This document shows, piece after piece, positions 16,450 through 36,961 of a DNA stretch of 64,000 bases. Where the stretch lies: NCBI GenBank assembly GCA_015065265.1, contig SVQQ01000001.1, positions 137,146 through 201,145 of the forward strand. Reading direction: 5' to 3'. The notes beneath the pieces were generated by a model. That model saw only the letters and a list, made by a program, of their open reading frames with translations, did no database searches and had not been told where the DNA came from. The number at the start of each line of letters is the position of its first letter. The first letter of the stretch is position 1. The stretch is from Oscillospiraceae bacterium. GTDB taxonomy: Bacteria > Bacillota > Clostridia > Oscillospirales > SIG627. Made by a program: the position numbers and the translations under genes.

Positions 16450-17664
16450 ATGCAAGGAAGTATCAGAAAAAAAGGAGCCACCTGGTCGTACAGAGTTGAG
16501 TTCGGTGCGTCAGGCGGTAAAAGAAATCAGATTGAGAGAAGCGGCTACAAAACAAAAAAGGAAGCTGCAAAGGCTCTCAACGATGTTCTATATCTCTACA
16601 ACAATACGGGCGACTATGTGGAGAACAAGAAAATCACCTTTACCGAGGTCTACACAGAGTTTATCGAAAATGAGGCACCAGCAACAAGAGCCTATGCAAC
16701 CATTGTGCGTTATAAGTCGCTTTACAAGAATCATTATGCGGAAAGATTCGGTAGTTTTTATATGTACCAGATTAACGCAAATATGATAAGCGATTTTCTC
16801 AACGAAAAGCGTACTTATCTCAGTGAGGAATTTGTCAAGGGACTGTATAAGTTTCTGAAAGTGCTTTTCGGATACGCACACAAACGGCAATATATCAAAA
16901 AGGATATTTTCCGTGAGATAACACCGCCACCCGATCCAAGACACAAAGGTGAGATAAGAGCGTACACGCCCGATGAGCTTCGTGCAATGGAACAGCGTTT
17001 GCAGGGGTCTAATGTTATCGTGCCGTTCTATATTGCACTCAATACGGGACTACGTGAAAGCGAGGTCTTTGGACTACAATGGAGCGATATTGACTTTGAA
17101 AACCGCAAAATCAAGGTACATAAGCAGTTATTGTTTCAGGATAAGAAGTGGTGCTTCTGCCCTCTTAAAACTACAAATGCATACCGAAGCGTGAACATCA
17201 CCGACAGCTTTTGTACCTATCTAAAAAATCTCAAAGCCAAGCAAGAGGAAAACAAAGCTTTTTATGGTGACGGCTATAAGCGGAATTTTGTGACGGAACG
17301 CCTTGTGAGAAATAAGGAAAAGCTTATGGAAATCACCGACTTTGTAAATGTCAAAATCAACGGCGAAATGCTTACCACAAACAGTATTAAGTTTATGTCA
17401 AGAACACTTAAAGCTGACCTTGATATACCATTTAAATTCCATAATTTACGGCACACCTACGCTACAGTTCTTGCAGAAAGCGGAATAAGCCCGAGATATG
17501 TACAGGAAACGTTAGGACATTCAAAGCTTGAATTTACGCTCCGCTATTATACCCACATAACAGAGAAAATGGGAGGTATGGCAAGGAAGGCACTTGAGAG
17601 TGCCGTAAGCTTTGCAGCGTTTAACAATGAGGAGGATGAGAATGAGAAAACTATTTGCGAGTAA
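16450..17664 (+). CDS. int: tyrosine site-specific integrase with N-terminal arm-binding (AP2-like) domain
   Basis: 404 aa. The N-terminus (GSIRKKGATWSYRVEFG...GYKTKKEAAKAL) is typical of Tn916/phage-type Int. The catalytic residues are in TGLRESEV (R), HNLRHTYAT (H-x-x-R) and LGHSKLEFTLRYYTH (H...Y). Confidence 0.92.
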   Translation: MQGSIRKKGATWSYRVEFGASGGKRNQIERSGYKTKKEAAKALNDVLYLYNNTGDYVENKKITFTEVYTEFIENEAPATRAYATIVRYKSLYKNHYAERFGSFYMYQINANMISDFLNEKRTYLSEEFVKGLYKFLKVLFGYAHKRQYIKKDIFREITPPPDPRHKGEIRAYTPDELRAMEQRLQGSNVIVPFYIALNTGLRESEVFGLQWSDIDFENRKIKVHKQLLFQDKKWCFCPLKTTNAYRSVNITDSFCTYLKNLKAKQEENKAFYGDGYKRNFVTERLVRNKEKLMEITDFVNVKINGEMLTTNSIKFMSRTLKADLDIPFKFHNLRHTYATVLAESGISPRYVQETLGHSKLEFTLRYYTHITEKMGGMARKALESAVSFAAFNNEEDENEKTICE

Positions 17665-19331: not shown

Positions 19332-20171
19332 ATGAAAAAAATCACTGAAAAACTTATTAAAAACTTTAGAAATTATCTGATAAACGAAGAGAAGAGCGAC
19401 GCCACGCTTGAAAAGTATATCCGTGATATATGTGCTTTTCTCGCTTGGCTCTGCGGTAGAGGTGTGGATAAACAGACAGTTCTCGAATATAAGGCGTATC
19501 TTATAGAGAACTACAAGCCTACAAGTGTAAATTCTGTTCTGTCCTCTCTCAACAGTTTTTTCACTTTTAACGAATGGTACGATTGTAAAGTTAAATCCTT
19601 AAAGATTCAAAAGCAGATATTTGCTTCCAAAGACAAAGAACTCACCAAAGCCGAGTATGAACGACTACTTGATGCGGCGAAGTCTAAAAAGAATGAGCGG
19701 CTTTACCTATTGATGCAGACTATATGTTCAACTGGTATCCGTGTGTCTGAGCTTCGTTTTGTGACGGTAGCCGCCGTTAATACAGGAGTTGCCAACATCA
19801 ACTGCAAAGGAAAACTCAGACAGGTGTTCTTGCCAAAAGCACTGTGCAAAGTTCTTACACGGTATATACGAGAGCAAAAAATAACAAGTGGCTCCGTGTT
19901 CGTATCCCGAACAGGTAAACCGCTTGACAGAAGCAATATATGGTTTGATATGAAAAAGCTTTGCGAATCCGCTGGGGTTTCAAAGGATAAAGTGTTTCCT
20001 CACAATCTCCGCCATCTTTTCGCTCGCACTTACTATTCGCTTCAGAAAGATATCGTAAGGCTTGCTGATATTCTCGGACATTCCAGTGTGAATACTACGA
20101 GAATTTATACGATGGAAACGGGTGAAGTGCATAAGAGGCAGATTGAAAAGCTGGGACTGCTAAAATGCTAA
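19332..20171 (+). CDS. XerC/XerD-like tyrosine recombinase (candidate invertase for the adjacent switch)
   Basis: 279 aa. It has an N-terminal SAM-like core-binding domain. Catalytic residues lie in STGIRVSEL (R), HNLRHLFA (H-x-x-R) and LGHSSVNTTRIYT (H...Y). Confidence 0.9.
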   Translation: MKKITEKLIKNFRNYLINEEKSDATLEKYIRDICAFLAWLCGRGVDKQTVLEYKAYLIENYKPTSVNSVLSSLNSFFTFNEWYDCKVKSLKIQKQIFASKDKELTKAEYERLLDAAKSKKNERLYLLMQTICSTGIRVSELRFVTVAAVNTGVANINCKGKLRQVFLPKALCKVLTRYIREQKITSGSVFVSRTGKPLDRSNIWFDMKKLCESAGVSKDKVFPHNLRHLFARTYYSLQKDIVRLADILGHSSVNTTRIYTMETGEVHKRQIEKLGLLKC

Positions 20172-20264
20172 AGTGACATAATTCCTATTATGTGGTATTA
20201 ATAACAGCAAAAATCAACTCGAATCTATACAAAATCAATAGAAATAAAAATTTACAGCACGAAA

Positions 20265-20306
20265 AGACCAATGAAAAATTTTAAAGTTACATTGGTCTGT
20301 TTTGTT
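20265..20306 (+). terminator. hairpin terminator inside the invertible segment
   Basis: Stem AGACCAATG (20265-20273) / CATTGGTCT (20290-20298), followed by GTTTTGTT. Confidence 0.6.
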
Positions 20307-20378: not shown

Positions 20379-20462
20379 AAACAAATAAAGTTATATTTAT
20401 ATTGCCTACAACAAAATGACAATACCACATAATAGGAATTACGTAATGGAAAGGATGTATCT

Positions 20463-21041
20463 ATGAGAAAAGACGAATATATGATGCTGCGTGAAGAAAT
20501 GATGTTTAATCAAAAACGCCAGGATAGCATAACGCAGTTTACATATACAACAACTGTTGCAATATGGGCAGCCGCCTTAACAGTAAACAATGCCTGGATT
20601 GTTTACTCGTCATTGTTTATGATTTTGTTAATGACTATGAGAATATCTAATTGTAGAAGGTGTATTGCTTTTTTAGCAGGATATATGAAAGTAGCATTAG
20701 AACCCGATTTGGATTTACAATGGGAAACAAAAAGCTTTGATTATTATGAAATAAACAAAAGAACCACTTCTGAATGGCTATTATATGTGGGTTCAAAATT
20801 CGATTTTCCAATACTTAGCATTATAAGTTCACTATTGTTTTGGGGGCTTCGAGATTGGAAATTTATGATATATAATTCCGTGCTTTTGTCGCACATCACT
20901 TTATTTATTCAAATATTTATTATAGTTTTTGAAATGCTTTTATACTTCAAGTATTCAAGTGTTGCAACAATAAAGAAAAAACTGATTAAGAACTGGGAGA
21001 TTGTTCAAAAAAATGAAAAAGAATTTAGTTGCATTAAGTAA
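20463..21041 (+). CDS. small polytopic membrane protein, unknown function (first gene downstream of the switch)
   Basis: 192 aa with about 4 hydrophobic segments (TTTVAIWAAALTV, IVYSSLFMILLMTM, FPILSIISSLLFWGL, LSHITLFIQIFIIVFEMLLYF). It overlaps the next gene. Confidence 0.6.
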   Translation: MRKDEYMMLREEMMFNQKRQDSITQFTYTTTVAIWAAALTVNNAWIVYSSLFMILLMTMRISNCRRCIAFLAGYMKVALEPDLDLQWETKSFDYYEINKRTTSEWLLYVGSKFDFPILSIISSLLFWGLRDWKFMIYNSVLLSHITLFIQIFIIVFEMLLYFKYSSVATIKKKLIKNWEIVQKNEKEFSCIK

Positions 21042-24000
21042 AGTATATGATGTGTGGCACAAAAGAGTTTTGTCACTATTGTTGGCTGTAGTTATGGTTG
21101 TTGGTATGATTCCAATTATATCGTTGCCTGTTAGTGCAGCAAGTATTGATGTGTTAAGGGAAAAATATCCCGATGGAAGATATTGGAATGGGGGTGATCC
21201 TTATAAAACAACATCTTCCCCATGTACTCATCACAAAAACTGCAGGGTATCTGGCGGATGTGGATGTAACGCATATACATACAATGGTTCAGGATATGCA
21301 ATTCAATGCATGGGTTTTGCATACCATTTACAGCAAGAAATATATGGAGGACATCCTTATAGTTGGGCTGAAAATAGAAACTATGATTCAGCAATGACAA
21401 AACTAGCTTCTGGAGATGTTATAAGATATGGAGGGCATAGTGTTTTTGTTGTATCTGTTTCTGGTGACACCGTTATAATTGCCGATTGCAACAGATATAA
21501 TGGCGAGTGCAAAATTCGATGGGATGTTCCATATAAAAAAAGTGATTTCAAAAGCTCTTTTCAATATGTAACACATGGTCTTTATGATGCAGGCGGAACA
21601 TATGTGCCTGCACCAGCACCTACACCCAACCACAGTTGCGGTAGTTGTGTTTCTATAAACAAAACTGGTTCTGTCACCGCTGCGGTTAATATAAGAACGA
21701 GTCCTAGTACATCAGGAACTCTTATTGGTGAGTTTAGCACAGGAACGAGCGTAACAATTAGTGCAAAATGCGGAAATTGGTATCTTGTTAAAAATTCAGG
21801 AGGAACAAGCGGCTGGGCTCATGCAAATTATATTAAGGTAAAGGAAAGCACAAGTTCAGGACACGAGTGTAGCAATTGCGTTTCAGTAAACAAAAGTGGA
21901 ATTGTTAAAGCTGATGTGAATGTAAGAAGCGGACCGGGTACTTCATACACATTTCTTTTTGAGTATTATACAGGAACAGATTTGAGCATCTCTGTGGAAT
22001 GTAACGGATGGTATTTTGTCAGCGATGCCGGAGGCAATTCTGGATGGGTTGCAGGAAATTTTGTCAAAGTTGATTCAACTCATTATCACGATTATGTCTG
22101 GAATTACGAAGCTGCTCACCCACACAGAGAATATGTAAAGTGTTCGTGTGGAGACTACGAATATACTGGTGAAAACTACTTTGATAAAATTTATTCAACG
22201 GAAAACGAGTATGCACATCCACATAACGAATATAAAATTTGCGGTATTTGCGGACAAACAGAATATACAGGTGCAACAAGATATGTAGATAGCTGTACAA
22301 CTTGTAATCCACCCCATACACACAGTTATACAGCCTACCATGAAGGTGTGCACCCGCACAGAGAATATATGAAGTGTTCTTGTGGAGACTATTACTATCT
22401 TGACTCATATTACTATGATAGTAGCTGTACAACCTGTAATCCGCCACATACACACAGTTACACGACATATCACGATGCTACGCATCCTCACAGAGAATAT
22501 AAAAAGTGCTCATGTGGAGACTCTTATTATCTTGATTCCTATTACTACGATAGTGGTTGTACAACCTGTAATCCACCCAAGTACACCATAACGTTTGATG
22601 CTAACGGTGGTAATTGGAGTGGAGGAAATCTCATCAAAACGCACGATGTGAATGTGACCATTCCCAATGCTTACCCCACCAGAACCGGATATACGTTCCG
22701 AGGGTGGTCCACAAGTCGAAATGGGACTATTGCGTATTTTGGCGGGGAGACATATACAACAAACAGCAGTATCACCCTTTATGCTGTATGGAAAGCAAAT
22801 ACATATACTATCAAGTATAACGCTAATGGTGGCAGTGGAAGTATGTCAAATTCATCTCATACATATGATACTGCCAAGGAACTTACTGCAAATACATTTA
22901 CAAGAACTGGATACACTTTTAAGGGCTGGTCGACAAGTTCTTCTGCAACAAGTGCAACATATACAGATAAACAGTCTGTTAAGAATCTTACGTCAACGAA
23001 TAGTGGCACTGTAAATTTGTATGCAGTATGGCAGGCAAATACATACACCATTACCTATAATGCAAATGGCGGTAGTGGTACTATGTCTAATTCGAGCCAT
23101 ACATATGATGTCGAGAAGAAACTTACATCTAATGCGTATGCGAGAGCTGGATATCATTTCAAAGGATGGTCAACAAGTGCGTCGGGTACGGTGGTATATA
23201 CAGATGAACATATGGTAAAAAATCTTTCCAGTGTAGCTAGCGGTAATGTGACTCTGTATGCCGTTTGGGAACCAAATACATATGTTGTTGATTTTTTTGA
23301 CGGTGATGAAAAGTGTCATTCAAAAACGGTTACTTATGGCCTGGAATACGGGGCACTTCCGAACAAATACAGTTCCATTGGCGAATTTTTAGGTTGGTAC
23401 ACGGATAAAAATGCCGGCGAAAAAGTTACAAAGGATACCATAGTAACAGCGCTGTCAGATCATAAATTGTATGCTAGGTGGCATATTCGTGTGGCCAATG
23501 TAACAATTAACAATACATATGCTTCGCTTGAATTGGGCGACACAACACAACTTGTTGTAGGATTTATTCCTAGTAACGCAACAAATAAAGAGGTGATTTG
23601 GACCTCCTCAAACGAAAATGTTGCTACAGTTACAAAAGATGGGTTAGTTAAAACTCTTTCAAGAGGAACGGCAATAATAACTGCAACAACAGTTGACGGT
23701 GGTTTTACAATTACATCTACTATCGAAGTATATGGCACTACCGTCACATATGATACAGACGGTGGAAGCAATTGCCCGCCAAAGCAAATTAAACAACCAA
23801 ACGTTCCACTTCGTGTTACAGATATTATTCCTGAGAAAAAAGGATTTATATTTAGCGAATGGCATTATATTTACTACGAAGGCTCTACCCAAATTATCAT
23901 AGGATATCGTCCAGGAGAAGTTATAAAACAAACAGGGGATATTGTACTTGTGGCAAGCTACTCGTCTAAGGAATATACAGTGCATTTTGATTCTGCTGGT

Positions 24001-25728
24001 GGAACATCATCTGTATCTGAAGCTACTGTGAGGTATTATTATCGCTATAAAAATCTTCCGACGGCGACGAAAGAAGGATATAAGTTTATGGGGTGGTTCA
24101 CACAACCTGTAGGAGGAGAAGAGATTACAGAAAAGTCCTATGTATTAATTGCTGAGGACCATACGCTGTATGCACAGTGGGAGCCTATAACATATACAGT
24201 TAAGTACAACGCCAACGGTGGAAGTGGAACAATGTCAACTTCTTCTCACACTTACGACGTCGAGAAAACTTTGTCGGTCAATGCTTTTACAAGAAGCGGA
24301 TATACCTTCCTTGGTTGGTCAACTGATCCTTCAGCAACAAGTGCTACATATACTGACAAACAATCTGTAAAGAATCTTACATCAACAAATAATGGTTCAG
24401 TTACTCTGTATGCTATATGGAAAGAAGAAAACCAAGAAACATATCAAATTGAAATTTGGGTTACTGACGGTGATAATACAGAAGAAATTATGTTGACAAA
24501 AAAGAAGGGAGATATAATAAATCTCAGTGATTACAAACCGAAACAGACAGGATACACTTTTATTGCTTGGGTTGATTTAAGTACTAATGAAAGTTACTCT
24601 GCTAATGATAAATTTGTTGTAACACGAGATACGCTTCTCGTATCCGGTATGCAAGCAAATTCCTATATTGTTTATTTCGATGCAAACGGAGGCGTTGTAA
24701 CTGAAGATCTAAAATCCGTTAAATTTGATTCGGCATATAGCCAACTTCCAACACCTACAAGAAACGGGTACACATTCGAAGGTTGGTTTACAGAACAAAA
24801 TGGCGGAGAGAGAATAACAGCCGACACAGTAGTTAAAACACCCACAAATCACACTATATATGCTCATTGGAGTCAAGATGTTCAAATCATTTCTCCATCT
24901 GCAGTATCTCTTAATAAAACAAGCACTACGCTAACAGTTGGAGATACAGAAACCCTTACAGCAACAGTAACTCCAAGCAACGTAACAAACAAAACTGTTA
25001 CTTGGATTTCATCAAATACAAATGTTGCAAGCGTTTCAAATGGTGTTGTTACAGCAAAAGCGGCAGGTACAGCCACAATTACTGTAAAGACCGCAGATGG
25101 AAACAAAACAGCAACTTGCGTTGTTACAGTAAATGCTATTGATGAAGATATGCCGTCTCTTAAAATTGACGATATTACTGTGGCACCGAGCGAAGATTTT
25201 TATGTAGATATTGTGGCTGAAAACTGCGACTCAGTTAAGGCAATAACTGTGAATGATATTGAATACAGCGAATCTTTAACATTAACAAATGCAGAATGGT
25301 TATTGTCAGGTTCTACACTCAGTTCTGTCGACATAAACGGAGATTCGCTTATTGCTTTCCAGAACGCAGTTGATGCAAACAAAGCTGTTATGCGACTGTA
25401 TTTTACTGCAGACAGCGAGGAAACAGATGGAGATGCTTACATCCGTTACAAAGCGATGGGAACTGATGCATCTAATAAAAACTTCGACTTTGTTGAGTAT
25501 GAAGGCAAAGTAACCATTAGAAGTTTCATTATTGGTGATTGCGACGGTGATGAGGAAATCACAGTAGATGATGCGATTTATCTTGCATTCTATACATTCT
25601 ATCCGAGCAGATATCCTCTTCCAACCGGTATGAATGTAGATTTTGACAAAGACGGAGCAATCACAGTAGATGATGCGATACACCTTGCTTTCCACACATT
25701 CTACCCGGATAGATATCCATTAAATTAA
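21013..25728 (+). CDS. giant secreted protein: CHAP-like cysteine amidase/peptidase, 2x SH3b, Cys/His-rich repeats, ~10 Listeria-Bacteroides (Flg_new) repeats, 2x Big_2, cohesin-like module, C-terminal dockerin
   Basis: Signal peptide (LLLAVVMVVGMIPIISLPVSA). CHAP-like Cys/His motifs (YAIQCMGFAY ... YGGHSVFVV). SH3b units (VNIRTSPSTSGT..GNWYLV; VNVRSGPGTSYT..NGWYFV). Repeats of the form YTITFDANGG...GYTFxGWST...LYAVW. Big_2 units (LxVGDTxxLxATVxPSNxTNKxVTWxSSN). Dockerin F-hand pair DCDGDEEITVDDAIYLAF / DFDKDGAITVDDAIHLAF. The start is taken as ATG 21013; the track ORF starts at TTG 21001. Confidence 0.85.
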   Translation: MKKNLVALSKVYDVWHKRVLSLLLAVVMVVGMIPIISLPVSAASIDVLREKYPDGRYWNGGDPYKTTSSPCTHHKNCRVSGGCGCNAYTYNGSGYAIQCMGFAYHLQQEIYGGHPYSWAENRNYDSAMTKLASGDVIRYGGHSVFVVSVSGDTVIIADCNRYNGECKIRWDVPYKKSDFKSSFQYVTHGLYDAGGTYVPAPAPTPNHSCGSCVSINKTGSVTAAVNIRTSPSTSGTLIGEFSTGTSVTISAKCGNWYLVKNSGGTSGWAHANYIKVKESTSSGHECSNCVSVNKSGIVKADVNVRSGPGTSYTFLFEYYTGTDLSISVECNGWYFVSDAGGNSGWVAGNFVKVDSTHYHDYVWNYEAAHPHREYVKCSCGDYEYTGENYFDKIYSTENEYAHPHNEYKICGICGQTEYTGATRYVDSCTTCNPPHTHSYTAYHEGVHPHREYMKCSCGDYYYLDSYYYDSSCTTCNPPHTHSYTTYHDATHPHREYKKCSCGDSYYLDSYYYDSGCTTCNPPKYTITFDANGGNWSGGNLIKTHDVNVTIPNAYPTRTGYTFRGWSTSRNGTIAYFGGETYTTNSSITLYAVWKANTYTIKYNANGGSGSMSNSSHTYDTAKELTANTFTRTGYTFKGWSTSSSATSATYTDKQSVKNLTSTNSGTVNLYAVWQANTYTITYNANGGSGTMSNSSHTYDVEKKLTSNAYARAGYHFKGWSTSASGTVVYTDEHMVKNLSSVASGNVTLYAVWEPNTYVVDFFDGDEKCHSKTVTYGLEYGALPNKYSSIGEFLGWYTDKNAGEKVTKDTIVTALSDHKLYARWHIRVANVTINNTYASLELGDTTQLVVGFIPSNATNKEVIWTSSNENVATVTKDGLVKTLSRGTAIITATTVDGGFTITSTIEVYGTTVTYDTDGGSNCPPKQIKQPNVPLRVTDIIPEKKGFIFSEWHYIYYEGSTQIIIGYRPGEVIKQTGDIVLVASYSSKEYTVHFDSAGGTSSVSEATVRYYYRYKNLPTATKEGYKFMGWFTQPVGGEEITEKSYVLIAEDHTLYAQWEPITYTVKYNANGGSGTMSTSSHTYDVEKTLSVNAFTRSGYTFLGWSTDPSATSATYTDKQSVKNLTSTNNGSVTLYAIWKEENQETYQIEIWVTDGDNTEEIMLTKKKGDIINLSDYKPKQTGYTFIAWVDLSTNESYSANDKFVVTRDTLLVSGMQANSYIVYFDANGGVVTEDLKSVKFDSAYSQLPTPTRNGYTFEGWFTEQNGGERITADTVVKTPTNHTIYAHWSQDVQIISPSAVSLNKTSTTLTVGDTETLTATVTPSNVTNKTVTWISSNTNVASVSNGVVTAKAAGTATITVKTADGNKTATCVVTVNAIDEDMPSLKIDDITVAPSEDFYVDIVAENCDSVKAITVNDIEYSESLTLTNAEWLLSGSTLSSVDINGDSLIAFQNAVDANKAVMRLYFTADSEETDGDAYIRYKAMGTDASNKNFDFVEYEGKVTIRSFIIGDCDGDEEITVDDAIYLAFYTFYPSRYPLPTGMNVDFDKDGAITVDDAIHLAFHTFYPDRYPLN
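22294..22580 (+). repeat. 132-bp tandem coding repeat (about 2.2 copies; more diverged copies from ~22081) encoding a Cys/His/Tyr-rich 44-aa unit
   Basis: Units start at 22294, 22426 and 22558. The unit is CTTCNPPHTHSYT(A/T)YH(E/D)(G/A)(V/T)HPHREY(M/K)KCSCGD(Y/S)YYLDSYYYDS(S/G). Confidence 0.85.
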
Positions 25729-25760
25729 AAGATTGGAGAATATATAAATGAAAAGATTTT
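25241..25760 (+). repeat. ~520-bp direct repeat, copy 1 (3' end of gene 21013-25728, the intergenic region, and the first 13 nt of a gene start)
   Basis: It reads identically to 28970-29489 (offset 3729). The encoded C-terminal residues and the reverse-strand track ORFs 25306-25695 / 29035-29424 are identical. Flanking homology with scattered mismatches extends upstream to about 25090 / 28820. Confidence 0.85.
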
Positions 25761-25848
25761 GGAGTTTGATAAAGCCAAATTCATCGTAAAAGAAGCATGT
25801 GTAGCTGAAAACAATTTATTTTAACAACAGATCAGGAGTTTAATAAAA

Positions 25849-28800
25849 ATGAAAAATAATTTTAAAAAACTGCTTGCTGCAATACTTGTTATAACTATGG
25901 TATTGCCGGGAATCACTGTTTTTGCAGATGATACAACTTATAGTTGTATGGAAACAAAGTACATATCTGTAGTTACTGGTAACGGAATTCTACTTTCTCC
26001 AAGTTTAACATTCAAATGTGATGCTGCCAAAGAATTTGGTTCCGATGGAATAAGCAATTATGCACCAATAATGCAATTAACAATTTATAACAATGACACC
26101 AAGGAAACTACTTACGCAAGAATTACGGGTACCGGTGCAAGTATTAGTAGTACATTAAAGCTTGAAGATAACTCTAGTTATATAGTAACTGTATCGTATA
26201 TATATGACGAATCCATCAATAAGAATGCTTTTAAAGTAGGCGGTGGTGATGGCTGGGCTGACGGCGACTGGTGGATATCTTCCACTAACAATATTAATAG
26301 TTACACTGTTTCATCAACTAAACCTTCCATAGAAACATCTGGCGGAACGGGAGATAATCAGGAAGATGAAGAGGATACACAACAAGAATCTAAGCCTTCG
26401 TATTATGCTACATGGAAAGATTTGCCATTAAATAAAACAGATACATATTATAAATATTACTTTGATCCTAGTGTAAATCCTTATTTCCCATATAATGCGC
26501 CTTACTCTCCTAACTATCCAAGTGAATACAAAAAGGATAGCGAGGGCGAGTATGTATATGGAAATTGCACATGGTATTGTTGGGCAAGAGCAAGCGAAAT
26601 GCTGGTAAGAAATGGAAAGAATCCGCTTACAAAAAGCCAACTTATAAGCAATCCGTCAGGTTGGTTTAATTGTGCAGGCGGATTGAGTTATGATAAAAAA
26701 ACATCTGCTGTTCCAAAAACAAACAGTATAGCAGTTTATCAGGGTCATGTAAGATACATCGAATATGCAGACAGCAATTATTTAATCTATTCAGAATCCG
26801 GATATCGTGATACTAATGATTATGATTATGACATGAAGACAACGGATCCGTTTAATGGTGGCAAACCTACCTGGCTATGCTACGGTGTTGGAACTGCAAC
26901 TAAAAACAGTTCCGGCAAATGGGTTTCAACTGGAAATTGGTCTTCTATATATGGTTTTGAGGTTGGAAGCGGAAGCGGAGATTCAAAACTGTTGGGGTAT
27001 ATTTATCTGAATGTAGATTCAATAAATGATGAAAATGCTCCCACTATAAATACAAACCTTGTTTCAAACTCATCTAAGAGCAGTTATACAACAGATGAAA
27101 ATGTTACCATAACATGGAATACTTATACGGGTGCGTCTTCTTACGGACTTACAATTTCTCGCAAGACAGGTTCTTCTTGGACATCGCGTGAAACAGTATA
27201 TGATAAAAACGGCTTGACTGGAAATTCTGTTAATATTGGTAAACTACCTGTAGGTGAATATCGCTTTAATATGGGTGCATACAGTAGCGGTGGTTCTCTT
27301 TTGGGAGATTATAGTGAACTTAAATATTTTACTGTAGTTGGTACATCTGGTGATGAGTCAAATGAAGACAGCACAGATCTTTACCCATATTCTTCTGCAT
27401 ATAAGAGCAGCAAATATTATACAGCATTAAACAATGTAGAGATGACTGGAGAAGAAGCTTCAGACCTCGTAAATGTTGCTTTGTCACAAGTTGGTTATCA
27501 TGAGGGTAACAGTACCTCAGAGCTTGATGGTTCAAACACTTCGGGAACTAACAATTATTCGGAATACGGATATTGGTTCGGAACACAGGTTAAAGGAAAT
27601 ACAACTGGGCATTTTTATGATTGGTGTGCTATGTTTGTAAGCTGGTGTGCAAGACATGCGGGAATATCAACAAGCACTATAAGCAATTCAGCATATGCTG
27701 GGGCAAGTAATGAAATCTATCACTTTTCAAACTTATCTTATTTCAGCAGAGGAAACGGGACACCTAAAAAAGGAGATTTAATATTTTTTGATAATCCAAA
27801 CGTGGATGGACAGTGGGATCATGTTGGAATTGTTGAATCTGTTACCTCTACACAAGTAAATACGATTGAGGGTAATGCTAACGAGCAGGTAAAAAGAAAA
27901 ACTTATAATTTGACCGATACATACATTCAGGGCTATGGAAGACCTAACTATAAGAATAGTTCTGTTGAAGATAGTACACAGTGGGGTGATTGGAGCGATT
28001 GGTCTACAACAAAACCTACTGCAAGCGATACTGTACAAGTGGAATCTAAAACACAGTATGGTTACTACCACTATATTTTACAATATTCAAATGGAAATTG
28101 TGGTGCATATCCTATTGATGCAACAACATTCAATAAAATTTTCCCAAGTTACCCCACAACACAAAAAGATTATCATACAAAATATTTTGATTCTCAATTA
28201 AGTAAAATTGATACGCTTACTTATAACGGCACAACATATAATTGTTATGCAAATACTTGCTGCCCTGATTCATATAACTATGACAATGGTTCAAATGCAA
28301 GTTATTTCTATAATCTTGGCACTCGCACTGTTTATCGCAGCAGAACAAAACTTTCAGAGACAATTTCTGTAAATAGTGTGACTTTAAATAAAAATTCGGT
28401 GACATTGGAAGTAGGAGCAACCGAATCTCTTACAGCCACAGTTAAACCAAGCAATGCAACAAACAAAGCAGTTACATGGACTTCATCAAATACAAGTGTT
28501 GCTAGCGTTTCAAACGGAGTTATTACAGCCAAAGCAGCAGGTACGGCTACAATTACTGTTAAAACCGCAGACGGCAACAAGACGGCTACTTGTACTGTCA
28601 CAGTGAAGACACCGACAGTTGCAGTAACAGGTGTTTCACTCAATAAGACTGCCACTACTCTGACAGTTGGAGGAACAGAAACTCTTATAGCGACAGTTGC
28701 ACCAAGCAACGCAACAAACAAAGCTATCACATGGACCTCATCAAATCCAAGTGTTGCTTCAGTTTCGAATGGTGTTATTACCGCAAAGGCGGCAGGTACA

Positions 28801-29457
28801 ACAACAATTACCGCAACAACGATTGACGGAAATAAAACAGCAACTTGTGTTGTTACAGTAAATGCTATTGATGAAGATATGCCGTCCCTGAAAATTGACG
28901 ATGTTACTGTGGCACCGGGCGAAGATTTTTATGTAGATATTGTGGCTGAAAACTGTGACATGGTCAAAGCAATAACTGTGAATGATATTGAATACAGCGA
29001 ATCTTTAACATTAACAAATGCAGAATGGTTATTGTCAGGTTCTACACTCAGTTCTGTCGACATAAACGGAGATTCGCTTATTGCTTTCCAGAACGCAGTT
29101 GATGCAAACAAAGCTGTTATGCGACTGTATTTTACTGCAGACAGCGAGGAAACAGATGGAGATGCTTACATCCGTTACAAAGCGATGGGAACTGATGCAT
29201 CTAATAAAAACTTCGACTTTGTTGAGTATGAAGGCAAAGTAACCATTAGAAGTTTCATTATTGGTGATTGCGACGGTGATGAGGAAATCACAGTAGATGA
29301 TGCGATTTATCTTGCATTCTATACATTCTATCCGAGCAGATATCCTCTTCCAACCGGTATGAATGTAGATTTTGACAAAGACGGAGCAATCACAGTAGAT
29401 GATGCGATACACCTTGCTTTCCACACATTCTACCCGGATAGATATCCATTAAATTAA
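25849..29457 (+). CDS. giant secreted protein: two CHAP domains, FN3-like module, 2x Big_2, cohesin-like module, C-terminal dockerin
   Basis: Signal peptide (LLAAILVITMVLPGITVFA). CHAP 1 (GNCTWYCWARASEM ... VYQGHVRYIEY). CHAP 2 (YDWCAMFVSWCARHAG ... WDHVGIVESV ... TIEGNANEQV). The C-terminal residues are identical to the end of the preceding protein. Confidence 0.85.
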   Translation: MKNNFKKLLAAILVITMVLPGITVFADDTTYSCMETKYISVVTGNGILLSPSLTFKCDAAKEFGSDGISNYAPIMQLTIYNNDTKETTYARITGTGASISSTLKLEDNSSYIVTVSYIYDESINKNAFKVGGGDGWADGDWWISSTNNINSYTVSSTKPSIETSGGTGDNQEDEEDTQQESKPSYYATWKDLPLNKTDTYYKYYFDPSVNPYFPYNAPYSPNYPSEYKKDSEGEYVYGNCTWYCWARASEMLVRNGKNPLTKSQLISNPSGWFNCAGGLSYDKKTSAVPKTNSIAVYQGHVRYIEYADSNYLIYSESGYRDTNDYDYDMKTTDPFNGGKPTWLCYGVGTATKNSSGKWVSTGNWSSIYGFEVGSGSGDSKLLGYIYLNVDSINDENAPTINTNLVSNSSKSSYTTDENVTITWNTYTGASSYGLTISRKTGSSWTSRETVYDKNGLTGNSVNIGKLPVGEYRFNMGAYSSGGSLLGDYSELKYFTVVGTSGDESNEDSTDLYPYSSAYKSSKYYTALNNVEMTGEEASDLVNVALSQVGYHEGNSTSELDGSNTSGTNNYSEYGYWFGTQVKGNTTGHFYDWCAMFVSWCARHAGISTSTISNSAYAGASNEIYHFSNLSYFSRGNGTPKKGDLIFFDNPNVDGQWDHVGIVESVTSTQVNTIEGNANEQVKRKTYNLTDTYIQGYGRPNYKNSSVEDSTQWGDWSDWSTTKPTASDTVQVESKTQYGYYHYILQYSNGNCGAYPIDATTFNKIFPSYPTTQKDYHTKYFDSQLSKIDTLTYNGTTYNCYANTCCPDSYNYDNGSNASYFYNLGTRTVYRSRTKLSETISVNSVTLNKNSVTLEVGATESLTATVKPSNATNKAVTWTSSNTSVASVSNGVITAKAAGTATITVKTADGNKTATCTVTVKTPTVAVTGVSLNKTATTLTVGGTETLIATVAPSNATNKAITWTSSNPSVASVSNGVITAKAAGTTTITATTIDGNKTATCVVTVNAIDEDMPSLKIDDVTVAPGEDFYVDIVAENCDMVKAITVNDIEYSESLTLTNAEWLLSGSTLSSVDINGDSLIAFQNAVDANKAVMRLYFTADSEETDGDAYIRYKAMGTDASNKNFDFVEYEGKVTIRSFIIGDCDGDEEITVDDAIYLAFYTFYPSRYPLPTGMNVDFDKDGAITVDDAIHLAFHTFYPDRYPLN

Positions 29458-29489
29458 AAGATTGGAGAATATATAAATGAAAAGATTTT
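28970..29489 (+). repeat. ~520-bp direct repeat, copy 2
   Basis: See 25241-25760. Identity runs through the stop codon, the RBS (GGAGAA) and ATGAAAAGATTTT of the next gene. Confidence 0.85.
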
Positions 29490-32400
29490 TAGGACTTATA
29501 CTTGCTTTAGTTTTAATGTTAACCATGCTTCCCTTTGTGACAGCAGCATCTGTACCCACTATGACAATGTCAAGTAGTAGTGGGCATGATATAGGAGATA
29601 CTGTTCCATTAACTATCTCGTTCGATTATGGTGAAAACAAAATAAAAAGTATAGCGATGGACAGCTTTACATACGATAAAGATGTTTTAAAATTAGATTC
29701 ACTTAGTTGGGAAATAGGAGGATTCCTTTCTTCTACTGATCCTGATGGGGATTCACTTATTGCTTTCACATCTGCTACAAAGGTTAGCGGTGTTGTTATG
29801 AAAGCGGAATTTAAAGTAATTGGTAAAAATAGTGATTTAACCCAAGAAATCACATTTAATTCTTTGGTAACACCTGAAACCGGCAGTAATATTACTGTCG
29901 CAGTTACAGGCGGTGTAATTACACTTAATCCTACAGAACTTACAGGTAAACAAACTGTAGCTATTACTGCTCCTGTTAAGGGTGCAACTCCTCAGAGCAC
30001 AATTGCTGCAGGTACAGGTTATACTGGAACAATTTCTTGGGAAGGTAATCCCACAAAATTCGCAGCTAACACTGTTTATGCTGCTAATATCACATTAACA
30101 GCAGCATCCGGATATATCTTTGGTAATGATGCAACAGGTAATGTTGCCGGTGCAACAATTACAAACAATTCTGTTTCAAATGACGGCAGCAAATTAACAT
30201 TTAAGGCTACATTCCCTAAAACTTCAGGCAAAGATACCCCTATTTGCGTTGCACCTGCAAATGTTACAGCAACATACGGTCAGACTTTAGCTGATATTAC
30301 ATTTAACAATCCTTCGGGCAATACAGAGGGTACATGGAGCTGGATGACCCCATCCACCACTGTTGGAAATGCCTCTGCAACACCTAAGAATTTCAAAGCA
30401 AAGTTTGTTCCTACGGATAGTGATAATTATCTGACTGTTGAAAACATTGATGTTCCTGTTACTGTAAACGCAAAGAACATTACCGTATCTGTTGCAACAA
30501 TTTCTGATCAGGAATATACCGGTAGCCAGATTAAACCTACTGTTACAGTTACAGGCGACGGCAAGACATTAGTACTTAATACTGACTACACTGTTGAATA
30601 CGGCGACAATGTAAATGCAGGAGAAAATGCTGGCTTTGTTACCGTTAAAGCAAAAGAAAATGGCAACTATACTTTTGAAAATGCTGTGAAGAACTTCAAC
30701 ATTGTTGCACAGGCTGGTACAGTTTCAATCAGCGGTAATTTGAATGTTCCCTTTGGTACAGCAGTACCTGATGTAACTATCAATAAAAATGGTAGTGACG
30801 GTGCAACAACCACTTATTACTACACAAATACAGCTTGCACAGAAGGTAAAACAACAACAAAGCCTACTGCAGCAGGCAACTACTGGGTACAGGTAGAAAT
30901 GGCAGCTGGTACAAACTTTGGTGCTGCTGTAAGTAATGCTTTGAGCTTTACAATTTCTCGTGCAGATATTACTCCGGAAGTTACCATTACAGGCTGGACA
31001 TATAAGACTACAGCGAATGATCCTTCTGTTACAGGTAACACCGGAAACGGTTCTGTAACATATAAGTATAAAGCAAAGACTGATGCAGATTCAGCATACT
31101 CAACTACAGTTCCTACAAATGCAGGTGAATATACTGTAAAGGCAGAAATTGCCGAGACTTCAAACTTCAACGCTGGTTCTGCAACAGCTAATTTCACAAT
31201 TGCTCCTAAAGTACTCGATGATACAATGGTTGCAGCAACAATAGCACCACAGGATTACACAGGAAACGAAATTAAGCCTACTCCTACTGTTACATATGGT
31301 ACAGCTCTTGTAAACAATACAGACTTTACCTACGGTTATGAAAATAACACTTATGTAGGAACAACTGCAAAGGTAACGGTTATTGGTAAAGGCAATTACA
31401 GCGGAGAGGTTGATAAAAACTTCAGCATTACCGCAATTGACCAGACACCTGCTATTACAGCAACAGCATCCGTAACCAAGGGTGGCAACACAGTTGATTT
31501 GAACCCTCTCGTTGCAAACGCTAAGGGCGATGTAAGCTTTACAATTTCCGGCGAAGCAAATGGTTGCACAATCGACAATGGTGTTCTTACATCCGGCGAA
31601 AATTCCGGCACAGTAAAAATCAATGTTGCTATCACTGCAAAGGATGTTAACGGTGACACAGTTAACGAGTATAATGCATACTCCCTCACAGACGCTATCA
31701 CCGTTACAGTAAACGACAAAGAAACGCAAGATACACTCAATATCACAAGTGCTACAACAGTTACTTATGGTCAGACACTTACACTTACGTCAAGTGGTGG
31801 TAGCGGTACAGGTGCAATAACTTATGCCGTAACAAATGGCACAGGCGAAGCAACAATCGAAGGTAACATTCTTACTCCTTCTAAGGTTGGTACTGTAACT
31901 GTTATCGCAACAAAGGGTGAAGATGAAACATACAATAGCATCTCAAGTGCTCCTGTTGTTATCACAATTGAAAAGATTAAAGTTGCTATCCCTGCTGAAG
32001 ATACAATAACATATACCTACACCGGTACAGAGCATACATATCAGATTGCTGAAAATGCTGCATACACTATCGTAGGTAATAAGCAGACAAATGCTAATGA
32101 GGCAGGATATCCTGTTACTGTAACACTTAACGATACAGAAACACACGCTTGGGCCGATGATTCTATCGAGGCAAAGAATTACACATTCATCATTAATAAG
32201 GCTACAATCACTGTTGCTGCTAAAAATCAGCAAGTATATGTAAATGGTACAGCTCCTGTTCTTGGTACTGACGATTATACAGTAACCGGTCTTGTAAACG
32301 GTGAAACACTTAAAACTGCTCCTACAATTGAATATGAAACGACTCCTGACACAAGTGCTACTGGAAGCGTTGTAATTAAGATTTACGGTGCAGAAGCTCC

Positions 32401-33313
32401 TGATGGCGGCAACTACAATGACGTTGTTCATACAAACGGTACACTTACCATTAAGAAGAAGACCTCCGGTGGTGGCAGCATTAGTGTTTCAAAGTACACA
32501 GTGAAATTTGAAACAAACGGCGGCAGCGAGGTTGAAAATAAGACGGTTAACAGAAATACTGTTCTTGAGGCTCCTGAAGCTCCTACAAAGGACGGATTTA
32601 AGTTTGACGGTTGGTTCACTGATAAGGAGTTAACAACAGCTTACGACTTCACTGCAAAGGTAACAAAGAACTTTACACTTTATGCAAAGTGGACTAAAAT
32701 TGAAAAAGAACCTGAAGTTGACAAGCCTGAAGATACGGACGATCCTGAGGTGACAGAATGGAAGAATCCTTTCAGCGATGTGAAGGCTGATGACTGGTTC
32801 TATGCAAATGTTCAGTATGTTGCCCAAAACAAACTCATGAACGGTGTTGCAGTAGATAAGTTTGCTCCTAACGATACTCTTACAAGAGCAATGCTTGTAA
32901 CTGTCCTTTATCGTAATGAAGGAGAACCTGCTGTAAACAAGAGCATACCTTTTGCTGATGTTGATATGGGTGCTTACTATGCAAGTGCAGTTATCTGGGC
33001 TAAGCAGAACGGCATTGTAAACGGCGTAACTGAAACTGAGTTTGCACCTGATGCAAATATCACTCGTGAGCAGATCGCAGCTATTATGTTCAGATATGCA
33101 CAGTACAATGGCATGGATGCTGTAACATTAGAAGAAAATCTCCACTTCACAGATGCAAGCGAGATTTCTGAATATGCAGTTTCGGCTATGAATTGGGCAG
33201 TCGACAAAGGCATTATGAAGGGTAAATCGGCTACTACAATCAATCCGAAGGATAATGCAACAAGAGCAGAAATTGCAGCGATTTTTCAAAGATTTGTTGA
33301 AAATATAAAATAG
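29477..33313 (+). CDS. giant wall-anchored protein: N-terminal cohesin-like module, many Ig-like (MBG/YTG-type) repeats, one Flg_new repeat, three C-terminal SLH domains (scaffoldin-like)
   Basis: Signal peptide (LILALVLMLTMLPFVTA). The cohesin-like segment IGDTVPLTISFDYGENKIKSIAMDSFTYDKDVLKLDSLSW...SSTDPDGDSLIAF...VVMKAEFKVIGKN is homologous to the pre-dockerin modules of the two preceding proteins (shared D-x-x-GDSLIAF). SLH repeats: FSDVKADDWFYANVQYVAQNKLMNG..., FADVDMGAYYASAVIWAKQNGIVNG..., FTDASEISEYAVSAMNWAVDKGIMKG... Confidence 0.85.
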   Translation: MKRFLGLILALVLMLTMLPFVTAASVPTMTMSSSSGHDIGDTVPLTISFDYGENKIKSIAMDSFTYDKDVLKLDSLSWEIGGFLSSTDPDGDSLIAFTSATKVSGVVMKAEFKVIGKNSDLTQEITFNSLVTPETGSNITVAVTGGVITLNPTELTGKQTVAITAPVKGATPQSTIAAGTGYTGTISWEGNPTKFAANTVYAANITLTAASGYIFGNDATGNVAGATITNNSVSNDGSKLTFKATFPKTSGKDTPICVAPANVTATYGQTLADITFNNPSGNTEGTWSWMTPSTTVGNASATPKNFKAKFVPTDSDNYLTVENIDVPVTVNAKNITVSVATISDQEYTGSQIKPTVTVTGDGKTLVLNTDYTVEYGDNVNAGENAGFVTVKAKENGNYTFENAVKNFNIVAQAGTVSISGNLNVPFGTAVPDVTINKNGSDGATTTYYYTNTACTEGKTTTKPTAAGNYWVQVEMAAGTNFGAAVSNALSFTISRADITPEVTITGWTYKTTANDPSVTGNTGNGSVTYKYKAKTDADSAYSTTVPTNAGEYTVKAEIAETSNFNAGSATANFTIAPKVLDDTMVAATIAPQDYTGNEIKPTPTVTYGTALVNNTDFTYGYENNTYVGTTAKVTVIGKGNYSGEVDKNFSITAIDQTPAITATASVTKGGNTVDLNPLVANAKGDVSFTISGEANGCTIDNGVLTSGENSGTVKINVAITAKDVNGDTVNEYNAYSLTDAITVTVNDKETQDTLNITSATTVTYGQTLTLTSSGGSGTGAITYAVTNGTGEATIEGNILTPSKVGTVTVIATKGEDETYNSISSAPVVITIEKIKVAIPAEDTITYTYTGTEHTYQIAENAAYTIVGNKQTNANEAGYPVTVTLNDTETHAWADDSIEAKNYTFIINKATITVAAKNQQVYVNGTAPVLGTDDYTVTGLVNGETLKTAPTIEYETTPDTSATGSVVIKIYGAEAPDGGNYNDVVHTNGTLTIKKKTSGGGSISVSKYTVKFETNGGSEVENKTVNRNTVLEAPEAPTKDGFKFDGWFTDKELTTAYDFTAKVTKNFTLYAKWTKIEKEPEVDKPEDTDDPEVTEWKNPFSDVKADDWFYANVQYVAQNKLMNGVAVDKFAPNDTLTRAMLVTVLYRNEGEPAVNKSIPFADVDMGAYYASAVIWAKQNGIVNGVTETEFAPDANITREQIAAIMFRYAQYNGMDAVTLEENLHFTDASEISEYAVSAMNWAVDKGIMKGKSATTINPKDNATRAEIAAIFQRFVENIK

Positions 33314-33328
33314 AATAACGATAAACAG

Positions 33329-33360
33329 AACCACACTCTGAAAACAGGGTGTGGTTTTTG
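33329..33360 (+). terminator. terminator of the surface-protein operon
   Basis: Stem AACCACACTCTG / CAGGGTGTGGTT (one mismatch), followed by TTTTG. Confidence 0.75.
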
Positions 33361-33537
33361 ATTTAATAATACTATTAGAATGTTTCTTCAATATGCCAAG
33401 AATTAAAATAATAAAAACTACTATATACCTTTTTAAGAGATATATGCCTAAGTAGTTGGCTGTATCCCTCGTTTTTTATGCAATAAGCTCATATTTAAAG
33501 CCTTTATTTAAAAGAATGTTAAATTTGTTATTCGTTG

Positions 33538-33613: not shown

Positions 33614-34192
33614 TTGACATTATATCAAGAAAGGAATAAAGCAATACTAGAAATTTTGTTGTCTAACAATGTGGATACTGTATTGGATTGTGGCTGTGGA
33701 AACGGTAGATTATTAAATCTACTATTTAAGAGTTACAAATTCAAGAAATTATCAGGATTGGATAATTCAAAAAAACAAATTAGAATGGCTCGAAAAAAAA
33801 ATATGGATAGTAATATTAATTTTTTTTGTCAATCAATATTTGACTTTGCTTTCAGTTCTGATTTAAGTTATTATGATGCAATTGTAGCTTCGGAAATAAT
33901 AGAACATTTTACCAAGGATGAATTGAATGATTTCTTAAGAATCGTTTTCTCCATATTATCACCTAAAATTGTTATAATCACAACACCAAATAAGGACTAT
34001 AATTACAATTATGAAAAGTTGTACAATGGTTTACGCCATTCGACACATTATTTTGAACTCAATGAATCGGAAGCAATAAACTTTGCCGAGAATATAGAAA
34101 AAAAATATTTGAATTATACGGCAACATGTGATTTTTGTGATATTAATCATTCTTCACATTTGATTACTTTTAAGAGGAGCGTAATTTTATGA
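33614..34192 (+). CDS. stand-alone Hen1-type SAM-dependent methyltransferase (RNA 3'-terminal ribose 2'-O-methyltransferase-like)
   Basis: TTG start 8 nt after GGAGG. SAM motif I is VLDCGCGNGRLL. Three further motifs match the metal-binding and signature motifs I remember for plant and bacterial Hen1 catalytic domains: ASEIIEHF (E-x-x-E-H), TTPNKDYN, and LRHSTHYFELNESEAINFA. There is no N-terminal Pnkp-interaction half. Confidence 0.7.
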   Translation: MTLYQERNKAILEILLSNNVDTVLDCGCGNGRLLNLLFKSYKFKKLSGLDNSKKQIRMARKKNMDSNINFFCQSIFDFAFSSDLSYYDAIVASEIIEHFTKDELNDFLRIVFSILSPKIVIITTPNKDYNYNYEKLYNGLRHSTHYFELNESEAINFAENIEKKYLNYTATCDFCDINHSSHLITFKRSVIL

Positions 34193-36801: not shown

Positions 36802-36804
36802 ATT

Positions 36805-36848
36805 AAGAACTACCGCCTAAACCATAATCGGTTTAGGTGGTAGTTCTT
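36805..36848 (+). terminator. long hairpin after the NTPase gene (terminator-like, weak T-tract)
   Basis: 19-bp stem AAGAACTACCGCCTAAACC / GGTTTAGGTGGTAGTTCTT (one G-U) with a 6-nt loop. Confidence 0.6.
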
Positions 36849-36961
36849 ATGTAAATACAAAGACAGGCCTGACAATATGCTGGGTTCGACTTTGCGTGTT
36901 TTGGTTAATCGTTGAAGAGGAAAAGCAAAAATCATAATGTTAAATTAATTCCATCACAGAA

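Follow-up and report, generated by a model that had tools for sequence, protein, structure and literature searches.

A candidate cohesin-dockerin display operon for wall hydrolases on an integrative island of an Oscillospiraceae bacterium

What is known of cohesin-dockerin assembly comes mostly from systems that degrade polysaccharides, namely cellulosomes, amylosomes and, most recently, mucinolysomes. In Ruminococcus flavefaciens, the protein RflaF_05439 (PDB 4EZY) consists of two NlpC/P60 modules and an X module-dockerin dyad (XDoc) that binds the surface cohesin ScaE (PMC3573020). In R. bromii, Amy4 carries a cohesin as well as a C-terminal dockerin, and this dockerin binds both the anchor Sca2 and the cohesin of Amy4 itself, giving multimers; Sca2 also binds the dockerins of peptidases and of leucine-rich repeat (LRR) proteins (PMC4611034). 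Anchoring scaffoldins with SLH domains, of the SdbA/OlpB type, are described for Clostridium thermocellum (reviewed in PMC12484212). Here we analyse a stretch of 64,000 nucleotides from an Oscillospiraceae bacterium (contig SVQQ01000001.1), referred to as the window, in which the region 20463-33313 holds four open reading frames (ORFs), all in the same direction. They encode a small membrane protein and three large proteins, P1, P2 and P3, each of which starts, by direct reading, with a Sec-type signal peptide.

We consider it fairly probable that these genes form a non-cellulosomal cohesin-dockerin display operon, located on an island, which holds wall hydrolases on the envelope of the producer. 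A promoter in an invertible segment would start a transcript running through the small membrane protein, P1, P2 and P3. P3 would be held on the wall polymer by its three C-terminal SLH domains, and its stalk of ~850 residues would present a single cohesin at the tip. The dockerin of P1 or P2 is predicted to plug, with Ca2+, into this cohesin, and docking would hold the hydrolases at the outer face of the producer envelope. The cohesin that precedes the dockerin in P1 and P2, forming a dyad with it, would be a second socket, so that P1 and P2 could stack on one another in the manner of Amy4; such chaining is plausible by analogy. We infer the dockerin-cohesin binding, the choice of cohesin that takes the dockerin, the lytic activity, and the target, be it a neighbour or the cell's own wall.

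The predicted arrangement is like that of RflaF_05439, a secreted protein with duplicated papain-like domains and a C-terminal dyad of β-sandwich and dockerin that tethers it directly to a wall-anchored monovalent cohesin, in a bacterium of the same taxonomic order. It also resembles the Amy4/Sca2 pair, in that the gene for a putative enzyme bearing both a cohesin and a C-terminal dockerin lies beside that for a monovalent wall-anchored cohesin. A preliminary description of the region had recognised three consecutive secreted proteins with a common module of ~130 residues, and we find this module in P1, P2 and P3. All five of its sequence observations are present where it placed them, except that its span for the trio began at 20463, and 20463-21041 is a separate gene for the small membrane protein, outside the three giants.

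The common module is predicted to fold as a cohesin. The modules of P1 and P2 are 98% identical, and those of P1 and P3 are 29% identical over 98 residues (pairwise E=9e-10). A word-indexed search for homologues returned only four relatives for the dyad and, for the P3 cohesin, no relative at all, and an exhaustive HMMER profile search of 1.84 billion representatives was therefore used, which gave 221 relatives of the module at E<=1e-3. An alignment of 42 members (A2) was made from 40 extracted relatives and the window sequences. The Pfam Cohesin family is matched by 31 of these 42 (best E=3.5e-17) and by all ten of the free-cohesin relatives tested. The A2 profile matches solved cohesins and dockerins in the PDB at 1e-7 to 1e-8, the cohesins being those of R. 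flavefaciens ScaB, C. acetobutylicum CohA2, C. cellulolyticum and C. thermocellum. The window modules themselves were scored with leave-self-out profiles, that is, family profiles rebuilt without the window sequences and their close relatives (Table 1).

AlphaFold2, run on the P1 module and tail with A2 as the alignment, produced a β-sandwich of about 10 strands followed by two helices, with a predicted local distance difference test score (pLDDT) of 95.6 and a predicted template modelling score (pTM) of 0.82. This supersedes a single-sequence run (pLDDT 53.6). When the dyad model was compared with the PDB using Foldseek, the top 36 matches were all cohesins (E 4e-9 to 6e-6, TM at most 0.76), and they span type I, type III and non-cellulosomal cohesins. 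Cohesins are nine-stranded flattened β-sandwiches with jelly-roll topology, and the model agrees with this fold. Because the Pfam matches of the family, the leave-self-out profiles and the predicted fold agree, we take the module to be a cohesin, as the preliminary description had suggested from its sequence pattern; the structure prediction that it had proposed as a check was run on the P1 dyad and favours the same answer. Many ruminococcal cohesins evade sequence-based detection (PMC13463774), which agrees with an identification from the fold. Weak matches to the module (28-31% identity) were also seen in gammaproteobacterial tubeworm-endosymbiont and Chromatiales metagenome-assembled genomes (MAGs) (L005, L007, L008 and L009), which suggests that cohesin-like modules occur far beyond the Firmicutes.

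Behind the module, P1 and P2 end in a tail, GDCDGDEEITVDDAIYLAFYTFYPSRYP ... DFDKDGAITVDDAIHLAFHTFYPDRYP, that has the make-up of a dockerin: two F-hand repeats, each with a 12-residue calcium loop and a helix. Asp occupies positions 1, 3, 5 and 12 of both loops. The starts of DCDGDEEITVDD and DFDKDGAITVDD are 34 residues apart, and AlphaFold2 places the helices at model residues 142-153 and 176-187. The duplicated F-hand dockerin had been read from the sequence before, and the calcium loops, the helices and the family profile score (Table 1) all bear it out. Dockerin_1 (Pfam PF00404) is matched by 18 of the 42 family members, and dockerins in the PDB are matched by the family profile at about 1e-8; the best PDB sequence match of the P1 dockerin is the ScaB dockerin of A. 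cellulolyticus (E=0.03). The two repeats are identical at 21 of 29 positions by direct reading, and 74% identical at the DNA level. In other dockerins, symmetric repeats accompany dual binding modes, and 2vn5 and 2vn6 are among the Foldseek matches of the dyad model.

The dockerin of P1 and P2 is fused straight onto the cohesin, without a linker. A dyad of this kind, with a calcium loop beginning at the cohesin end, is found in 101 of 147 family representatives, at the C-terminus in 89 of the 101 and at the N-terminus in 12. The proteins that carry it have BspA-type LRRs, ricin or C-type lectins, Big_3, or CHAP plus fn3, and from the sequences the dyad appears to be a general tag and the rule in the family. 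It is a real possibility, though not a likely one, that display operates as proposed but that the cohesin of the dyad is only a structural partner comparable to an X module and binds nothing itself, in which case P1 and P2 would dock singly and would not chain. The last cohesin strand runs into the first calcium loop without a linker, and the pTM of the two-domain model suggests a fixed geometry. The fusion is kept in most of the family, at either end of the protein, as an obligate pair would be. XDoc dyads that bind anchoring cohesins are moreover established (PMC3573020), and 4iu2/4iu3 and 4wkz are among the Foldseek matches. What favours a second socket is that the dyad cohesin is complete in its fold and groups with the free cohesins and the tandem arrays of the family, at least two cohesins being present in 32 of the 147 representatives. 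In addition, the cohesin of Amy4 does bind dockerins, its own included, and the P1-type dockerin is also found without a cohesin in front of it.

The preliminary description had assigned three CHAP domains plus SH3b domains to the cargo. This is correct for the two CHAP domains of P2 and for SH3b, of which P1 has two (SH3_3), but the third hydrolase domain, in P1, is CHAP-like and falls below the Pfam cut-off. Over the whole of P2, Pfam CHAP gives E=2.7e-18 (66.7 bits) in two stretches, the better being CHAP-2, and the P2 domains have the papain-like core of CHAP or NlpC/P60 enzymes with a profile score above threshold. CHAP-2 matches three phage endolysin families in PHROGs (1e-24, 2.3e-21 and 9.4e-15). 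Cys and His are present in all three papain-like domains, as found by direct reading. The earlier claim of peptidoglycan-hydrolase cargo is borne out to the extent that at least one of the domains, CHAP-2, is endolysin-like. No glycoside hydrolase or carbohydrate-binding module was found in P1, P2 or P3 using Pfam.

P1 also contains eight Flg_new repeats, two Big_2 repeats and four Cys/His-rich repeats of ~44 residues. The last of these (22081-22578; residues 361-526) have the pattern HPH.EY.KCSCGD ... CTTCNPPHTHSY and no match in Pfam. CxxCG motifs are found just upstream of the cohesin in many family members, and they and the Cys/His-rich repeats may be small metal-binding modules. P2 has an N-terminal domain (residues 27-170) without family assignment, and further on has a domain starting WGDWSDWS...YGYYHY (27979-28350; residues 711-834), which it has in common with the cargo of a related locus (L004, below) and which matches nothing in Pfam or PHROGs.

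Such a composition could also belong to a phase-variable device for adhesion or antigenic variation, in which the cargo would be mainly adhesins, or proteases acting on substrates other than peptidoglycan, such as host or food glycoproteins. We regard this as unlikely. P1 does consist mostly of Flg_new (internalin-type) and Big_2 repeats, a sister cargo (P0006) has ricin-type lectin domains, and other dyad proteins are BspA-type LRR proteins and C-type lectins. CwpV of C. difficile is a phase-variable wall protein with roles in aggregation and in resistance to phages. For RflaF_05439, no protease activity of its NlpC/P60 modules was detectable (PMC3573020). However, P2 CHAP-2 matches phage endolysin families at down to 1e-24, the two SH3b domains of P1 are typical wall-targeting modules of lysins, and every cargo of the three related loci has at least one papain-like Cys/His domain with its catalytic residues intact, all of which speaks against this reading.

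P3 appears to be built like a monovalent anchoring scaffoldin of the SLH type, with a signal peptide, a cohesin and a C-terminal SLH triplet. It has no dockerin. This architecture was proposed in the preliminary description, and the Pfam and profile searches confirm it. Neither the operon nor the rest of the window contains a multi-cohesin scaffoldin or a dockerin-bearing glycoside hydrolase, and P3 therefore resembles an anchoring scaffoldin outside a cellulosome. Every cohesin protein in the locus is monovalent. Elsewhere in the family, cohesins without a dockerin are typically N-terminal on wall-anchored proteins, with choline-binding repeats, Cu_amine_oxidN1 or CD1107-like domains. Since these free N-terminal cohesins carry varied wall anchors, a cohesin tip on a wall anchor would seem to be a recurrent architecture. 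The host chromosome encodes another SLH protein outside the island (11794-14475), which indicates that this organism makes use of SLH anchoring.

Related loci provide the best evidence at hand for a partnership of the P1-type dockerin with the P3-type cohesin. When a genome collection was scanned with the alignment A1, L004 was the one close locus returned, besides five that were distant. It belongs to an Oscillospiraceae MAG obtained from goat rectum, and its cargo combines two papain-like domains with the same dyad (80% identical). The cargo is followed after 19 nt by a protein of 219 residues (8603-9262) that consists of a signal peptide, a P3-type cohesin (with a weak Pfam Cohesin match, E=7e-4) and a dockerin of another subtype, DAIYLMYYTFFPDDYP. 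From its parts, this small protein looks like an adaptor, and its different dockerin implies a further anchoring cohesin in that genome. In the loci L010 and L011, the recombinase that precedes the operon is 95% identical to that of the window and has the same position, and the cargo (P0006) has a papain-like domain, a ricin lectin, Flg_new, Big_2 and the same terminal dyad. The anchor of L010 is 87% identical to P3 over 1276 residues, with no gaps. The papain-like domain of P1 type is N-terminal in the cargo of both L010 and L004. A gene for cargo with a P1-type dockerin is thus followed by a gene for a P3-type cohesin in three independent contexts, each time with a 19-nt gap, and it is because this adjacency is kept while the surroundings are swapped that we regard the two as probable partners.

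Within the window, the same unit is seen in a perfect direct repeat of 521 nt (Table 1). Behind the P1 gene there is a remnant ORF (25749-25790) that retains a 13-codon P3 start, MKRFWSLIKPNSS and then a stop. The repeat and the remnant imply that recombination in this unit brought in the second cargo gene. Recombination between the two copies would remove P2, and many public assemblies break in the repeat. Shorter variants of P1 in other samples (990-1456 residues) were considered and set aside, as they are contigs truncated inside the repeat and not real variants.

It might be argued that P1, P2 and P3 do not pair with one another, but form a mere cluster of related surface proteins that engage scaffoldins or dockerin proteins encoded elsewhere. 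The analysis covers 64 kb of the genome, the family is large and has many dockerin subtypes, and the P3-type cohesin of L004 bears a different dockerin that must dock elsewhere. Nevertheless we find this very unlikely, given that P1-type-dockerin cargo and a P3-type cohesin gene are paired in the three contexts just described, that the 521-nt repeat shows the intergenic region moving as a unit with the cargo 3' end before it and the P3 start after it, and that all the genes share one promoter and one terminator. We give hardly any credence to the idea that the modules owe their similarity merely to recent shuffling of domains and have no present function, the genes being decaying or silent ones on the island. 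The perfect repeat and the P3 remnant do show recent rearrangement. Against this idea, none of the three ORFs is interrupted in its 1202-1571 codons, identical copies are found in 11-16 contigs that come from many samples, the anchor is conserved without gaps in a diverged locus, and the modules give a high-confidence predicted fold.

Invertible-promoter switches with tyrosine recombinases are known from fimS of E. coli (FimB/FimE) and cwpV of C. difficile (RecV). The putative display operon is preceded by a layout of this kind, consisting of inverted repeats, a promoter and an adjacent recombinase gene, and the layout is shared by two diverged loci, this one and L010. The recombinase matches XerA/XerD-like models in NCBIfam and, weakly, models of tyrosine-type DNA invertases, and its gene ends 5 nt before the inverted repeat. 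The repeats are 96% complementary, and each arm is a palindromic core, ACATAAT-N4-ATTATGT, in which the spacers TCCT and AGGA are mutually reverse-complementary. The switch of L010 (5625-5918) has the same arms with different spacers, and a TTGACT...TATAAT promoter at the equivalent place. Because the promoter lies between inverted recombinase core sites beside a tyrosine recombinase gene, expression of the operon is probably phase-variable, and inversion of the segment is likely. Two contigs of different locus types (L002 and L011) start exactly at the right repeat and a third (L018) ends within the segment, as would be expected because mixed orientations would break assemblies in this way. 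A metagenome scan for the OFF junction had 0 matches, in a collection from which no relative of the window P3 cohesin module was returned either, and this result therefore carries no weight. The window has no recombinase core sites other than the two arms, and so shows no sign of a multi-cassette shufflon. A hairpin is found inside the segment upstream of the promoter (20262-20301), and is conserved in L010 at ~5719-5749.

The operon genes overlap or lie close together, with 19 nt between P2 and P3, and the four appear to be one operon that runs from the switch promoter to an intrinsic terminator. The first of them encodes the 192-residue membrane protein, which has no match in Pfam, NCBIfam or PHROGs and for which a role in immunity, in export or as a chaperone is possible. 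In L010 the slot after the switch (5939-6580) is filled by an unrelated membrane protein of 213 residues. The small membrane protein in this position differs between loci together with the cargo head.

Several results weigh against a display operon of the form proposed here. Used on the isolated window modules, Pfam Cohesin (PF00963) gives no match even at E<=10, and Dockerin_1 reaches only E=0.31 on the window tails (11.7 bits, cut-off 22.9). The P3 cohesin and the P1-type cohesin are not each other's best matches, and this comparison refuted the idea, which we tested, that they are sister groups. It follows that the GDSLIAF motif cannot be used as evidence of a common specificity, and the P3 cohesin, not being the closest relative of the P1 type, need not share its dockerin specificity. 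A fragment of 113 residues in ENA (P0003) has a P1-type dockerin (77% identical) behind a β-rich segment that is not a cohesin, so that the dyad cohesin may be dispensable for docking. The CHAP-like domain of P1, which has Cys and His in the right order, remains under the 26-bit Pfam cut-off, and searches of PDB sequences with the three hydrolase domains found no match. The switch is in the ON orientation in seven of the seven assemblies that carry the recombinase. Finally, there may be other cohesin or dockerin partners beyond the 64-kb window. Every part of the earlier interpretation that was open to an in silico test was favoured by the result, and we regard that interpretation as partly supported.

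The locus had been described as lying on a mobile island, and this also holds: one end has a gene for a tyrosine integrase, and imperfect attachment (att) repeats of ~60 bp duplicate the rubrerythrin 3' end. The island is ~30.6 kb long, has a lower G+C content inside, and is inserted in the same way in contigs from about ten samples. A 23-nt motif, CGTGGGAAATCCGTGGGAAATGA, is found just inside both ends (16207 and 46549) and may be an arm-type site of the integrase. Downstream of the operon, 33614-43334 encodes an S-adenosylmethionine (SAM) methyltransferase, a PNP_UDP/AAA protein of 870 residues, a DUF4143 ATPase, a PRTase-CE and ORC-CDC6-like pair and an Eco57I-type N6 methylase, and looks like a defence cluster. 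A conjugation-associated wall hydrolase of the CwlT/PrgK type was considered and rejected, as there are no type IV secretion or coupling genes among the scanned ORFs of the island, and as P1-P3 are giant Sec-secreted repeat proteins. The exact proteins P1-P3 are present on 11-16 public contigs (P2 on 13); the accessions in Table 1 derive from a MAG labelled Ruminococcaceae/Oscillospiraceae bacterium. The ORF of P1 is open from 21001, and the start codon used in the table, the likely ATG, is that of the public gene call.

Table 1. Positions and properties of the features discussed in the text (aa, amino acid residues).
Feature	Position	Strand	Length or residues	Properties
Left att repeat	16008-16068	+		3' end of rubrerythrin gene; beside integrase 16450-17664
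Tyrosine recombinase, candidate invertase	19332-20171	+	279 aa	Pfam Phage_integrase E=1.6e-29
Putative invertible promoter segment	20176-20444			24-nt inverted repeats (20176-20199, 20421-20444) enclosing 221 bp
Sigma-70-like promoter in segment	20350-20378	+		TTGACT, 17-nt spacer, TATGAT, upstream TG; 10/12 consensus positions; faces operon (ON)
Multi-pass membrane protein, first operon gene	20463-21041	+	192 aa	3' end overlaps P1 start
P1, cargo 1	21013-25728	+	1571 aa	MBE6700395.1, NCBI label 'hypothetical protein'; signal peptide, papain-like (CHAP-like) domain, two SH3b, Cys/His-rich repeats, Flg_new and Big_2 repeats, cohesin-dockerin dyad
P1 papain-like Cys/His hydrolase core	21295-21492	+		QCMGFA ... 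GGHSVFV ... DCN; Pfam CHAP 24.8 bits, E=3.1e-5
P1 two SH3b (SH3_3) wall-binding domains	21667-22077	+		Pfam E=3.3e-20, two stretches
P1 cohesin module	25141-25527	+	aa 1381-1509	Leave-self-out profile 93 bits; AlphaFold2 model
521-nt perfect direct repeat, copy A	25240-25760	+	521 nt	Cargo 3' end, ribosome-binding site, first 13 nt of P3-type ORF
P1 dockerin	25519-25725	+		F-hand repeats DCDGDEEITVDD and DFDKDGAITVDD, helix after each; leave-self-out profile 72 bits
P2, cargo 2	25849-29457	+	1202 aa	MBE6700396.1, NCBI label 'CHAP domain-containing protein'; signal peptide, unassigned N-terminal domain, CHAP-1, fn3-like region, CHAP-2, W-rich domain, two Big_2, cohesin-dockerin dyad
P2 CHAP-1	26551-26805	+		GNCTWYCW ... 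GHVRYIE ... SESG; Pfam 29.2 bits, E=1.3e-6, above 26-bit cut-off
P2 CHAP-2, endolysin-like	27613-27882	+	aa 589-678	DWCAMFVSW ... DHVGIV ... IEGN
P2 cohesin module	28870-29256	+	aa 1008-1136	Leave-self-out profile 97 bits
521-nt perfect direct repeat, copy B	28969-29489	+	521 nt	
P2 dockerin	29248-29454	+		Identical to P1 dockerin
P3, putative anchoring scaffoldin	29477-33313	+	1278 aa	MBE6700397.1, NCBI label 'hypothetical protein'; signal peptide, N-terminal cohesin, ~850-aa β-rich stalk, Flg_new, three SLH domains
P3 cohesin module	29543-29953	+	aa 23-159	Leave-self-out profile 70 bits; no dockerin after
P3 triple SLH region	32765-33304	+	aa 1097-1276	Pfam SLH E=4.4e-32, three stretches
Intrinsic terminator closing operon	33327-33362	+		14-bp hairpin, -20.3 kcal/mol, z=-5.9, U run
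Right att repeat	46635-46695	+		Displaced copy of rubrerythrin 3' end

The interest of the locus is that the plug-and-socket parts of cellulosomes are found in a compact mobile operon, apparently switchable, whose cargo seems to be aimed at bacterial walls and not at dietary fibre. If the proposed binding and lysis are true, gut Oscillospiraceae tether bacteriolytic enzymes on a stalk and exchange the heads by recombination. The operon would then be a natural minimal display system with three parts, namely an SLH anchor, a cohesin tip and a cohesin-dockerin tag, and it would become possible to give a function to a family of over 200 surface proteins with cohesins that evade standard annotation. 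The presence of the dyad on lectins, LRR adhesins and hydrolases also raises the question of whether dyads build non-covalent fibres on Gram-positive surfaces. A bolder proposal, which we consider quite unlikely as it stands, is that Gram-positive gut anaerobes use the whole cassette, from recombinase and switch to constant anchor, as a mobile contact weapon subject to phase variation, in which swappable wall-degrading heads on the SLH stalk lyse neighbouring bacteria on contact and the variable membrane protein gives cognate protection or helps in export. The heads in question would be CHAP/SH3b or papain-like/ricin lectin proteins, held by a private cohesin-dockerin pair and possibly stacked in chains. 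If true, cellulosome parts would have given rise to a new type of contact-dependent antagonism.

The differences from the described systems can now be listed. Cellulosomes, amylosomes and mucinolysomes place dockerin-bearing carbohydrate-active enzymes on multi-cohesin scaffoldins, whereas the cargo here consists of CHAP, SH3b, Flg_new and Big_2. The dyad of RflaF_05439 uses an X module where that of P1 and P2 uses a cohesin, its anchor ScaE is sortase-linked and not SLH-anchored, and it belongs to a full cellulosome gene set, whereas the trio described here forms an island operon. Nor does RflaF_05439 have an invertible switch, SH3b domains or an endolysin-like CHAP domain, whereas this locus has the last two and a putative switch. 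The cargo of the amylosome protein Amy4 is a GH13 amylase and its anchor is of the sortase type, unlike P1/P2 and P3, and the amylosome genes of R. bromii are dispersed, constitutively expressed and not on mobile elements.

P3 has the same order of parts as SdbA and OlpB, with a signal peptide, one or more distal cohesins, a linker and a C-terminal SLH triplet for non-covalent binding to the wall polymer. The type II cohesins of those proteins bind the XDoc of a primary scaffoldin, which in turn carries glycoside hydrolases, whereas the single divergent cohesin of P3 apparently receives enzymes directly, and the long stalk of β-rich repeats is peculiar to P3 in this comparison. Like phage endolysins and bacteriolysins, the cargo combines catalytic CHAP domains with SH3b wall-binding domains, and one of its domains matches endolysin families. 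Unlike endolysins of this build, P1 and P2 are 1200-1570 residues long, Sec-secreted, furnished with long repeat spacers and, as proposed, tethered to the producer. The putative switch is like fimS and cwpV in having an inverted-repeat segment beside a tyrosine recombinase gene, upstream of an operon for surface structures, and like cwpV in its predicted control of a wall-anchored surface protein of a Firmicute. It differs in that the cwpV switch acts through a terminator while this one carries a promoter, and in that neither fimS nor cwpV controls a cohesin-dockerin assembly.

The precedent of RflaF_05439 and the wide distribution of the dyad tag lower the novelty of the display system as such. 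What appears to be new is the combination: an endolysin-like cargo directed at peptidoglycan, a cohesin in place of the X module, an operon with swappable heads, its location on an island, and an apparent phase switch.

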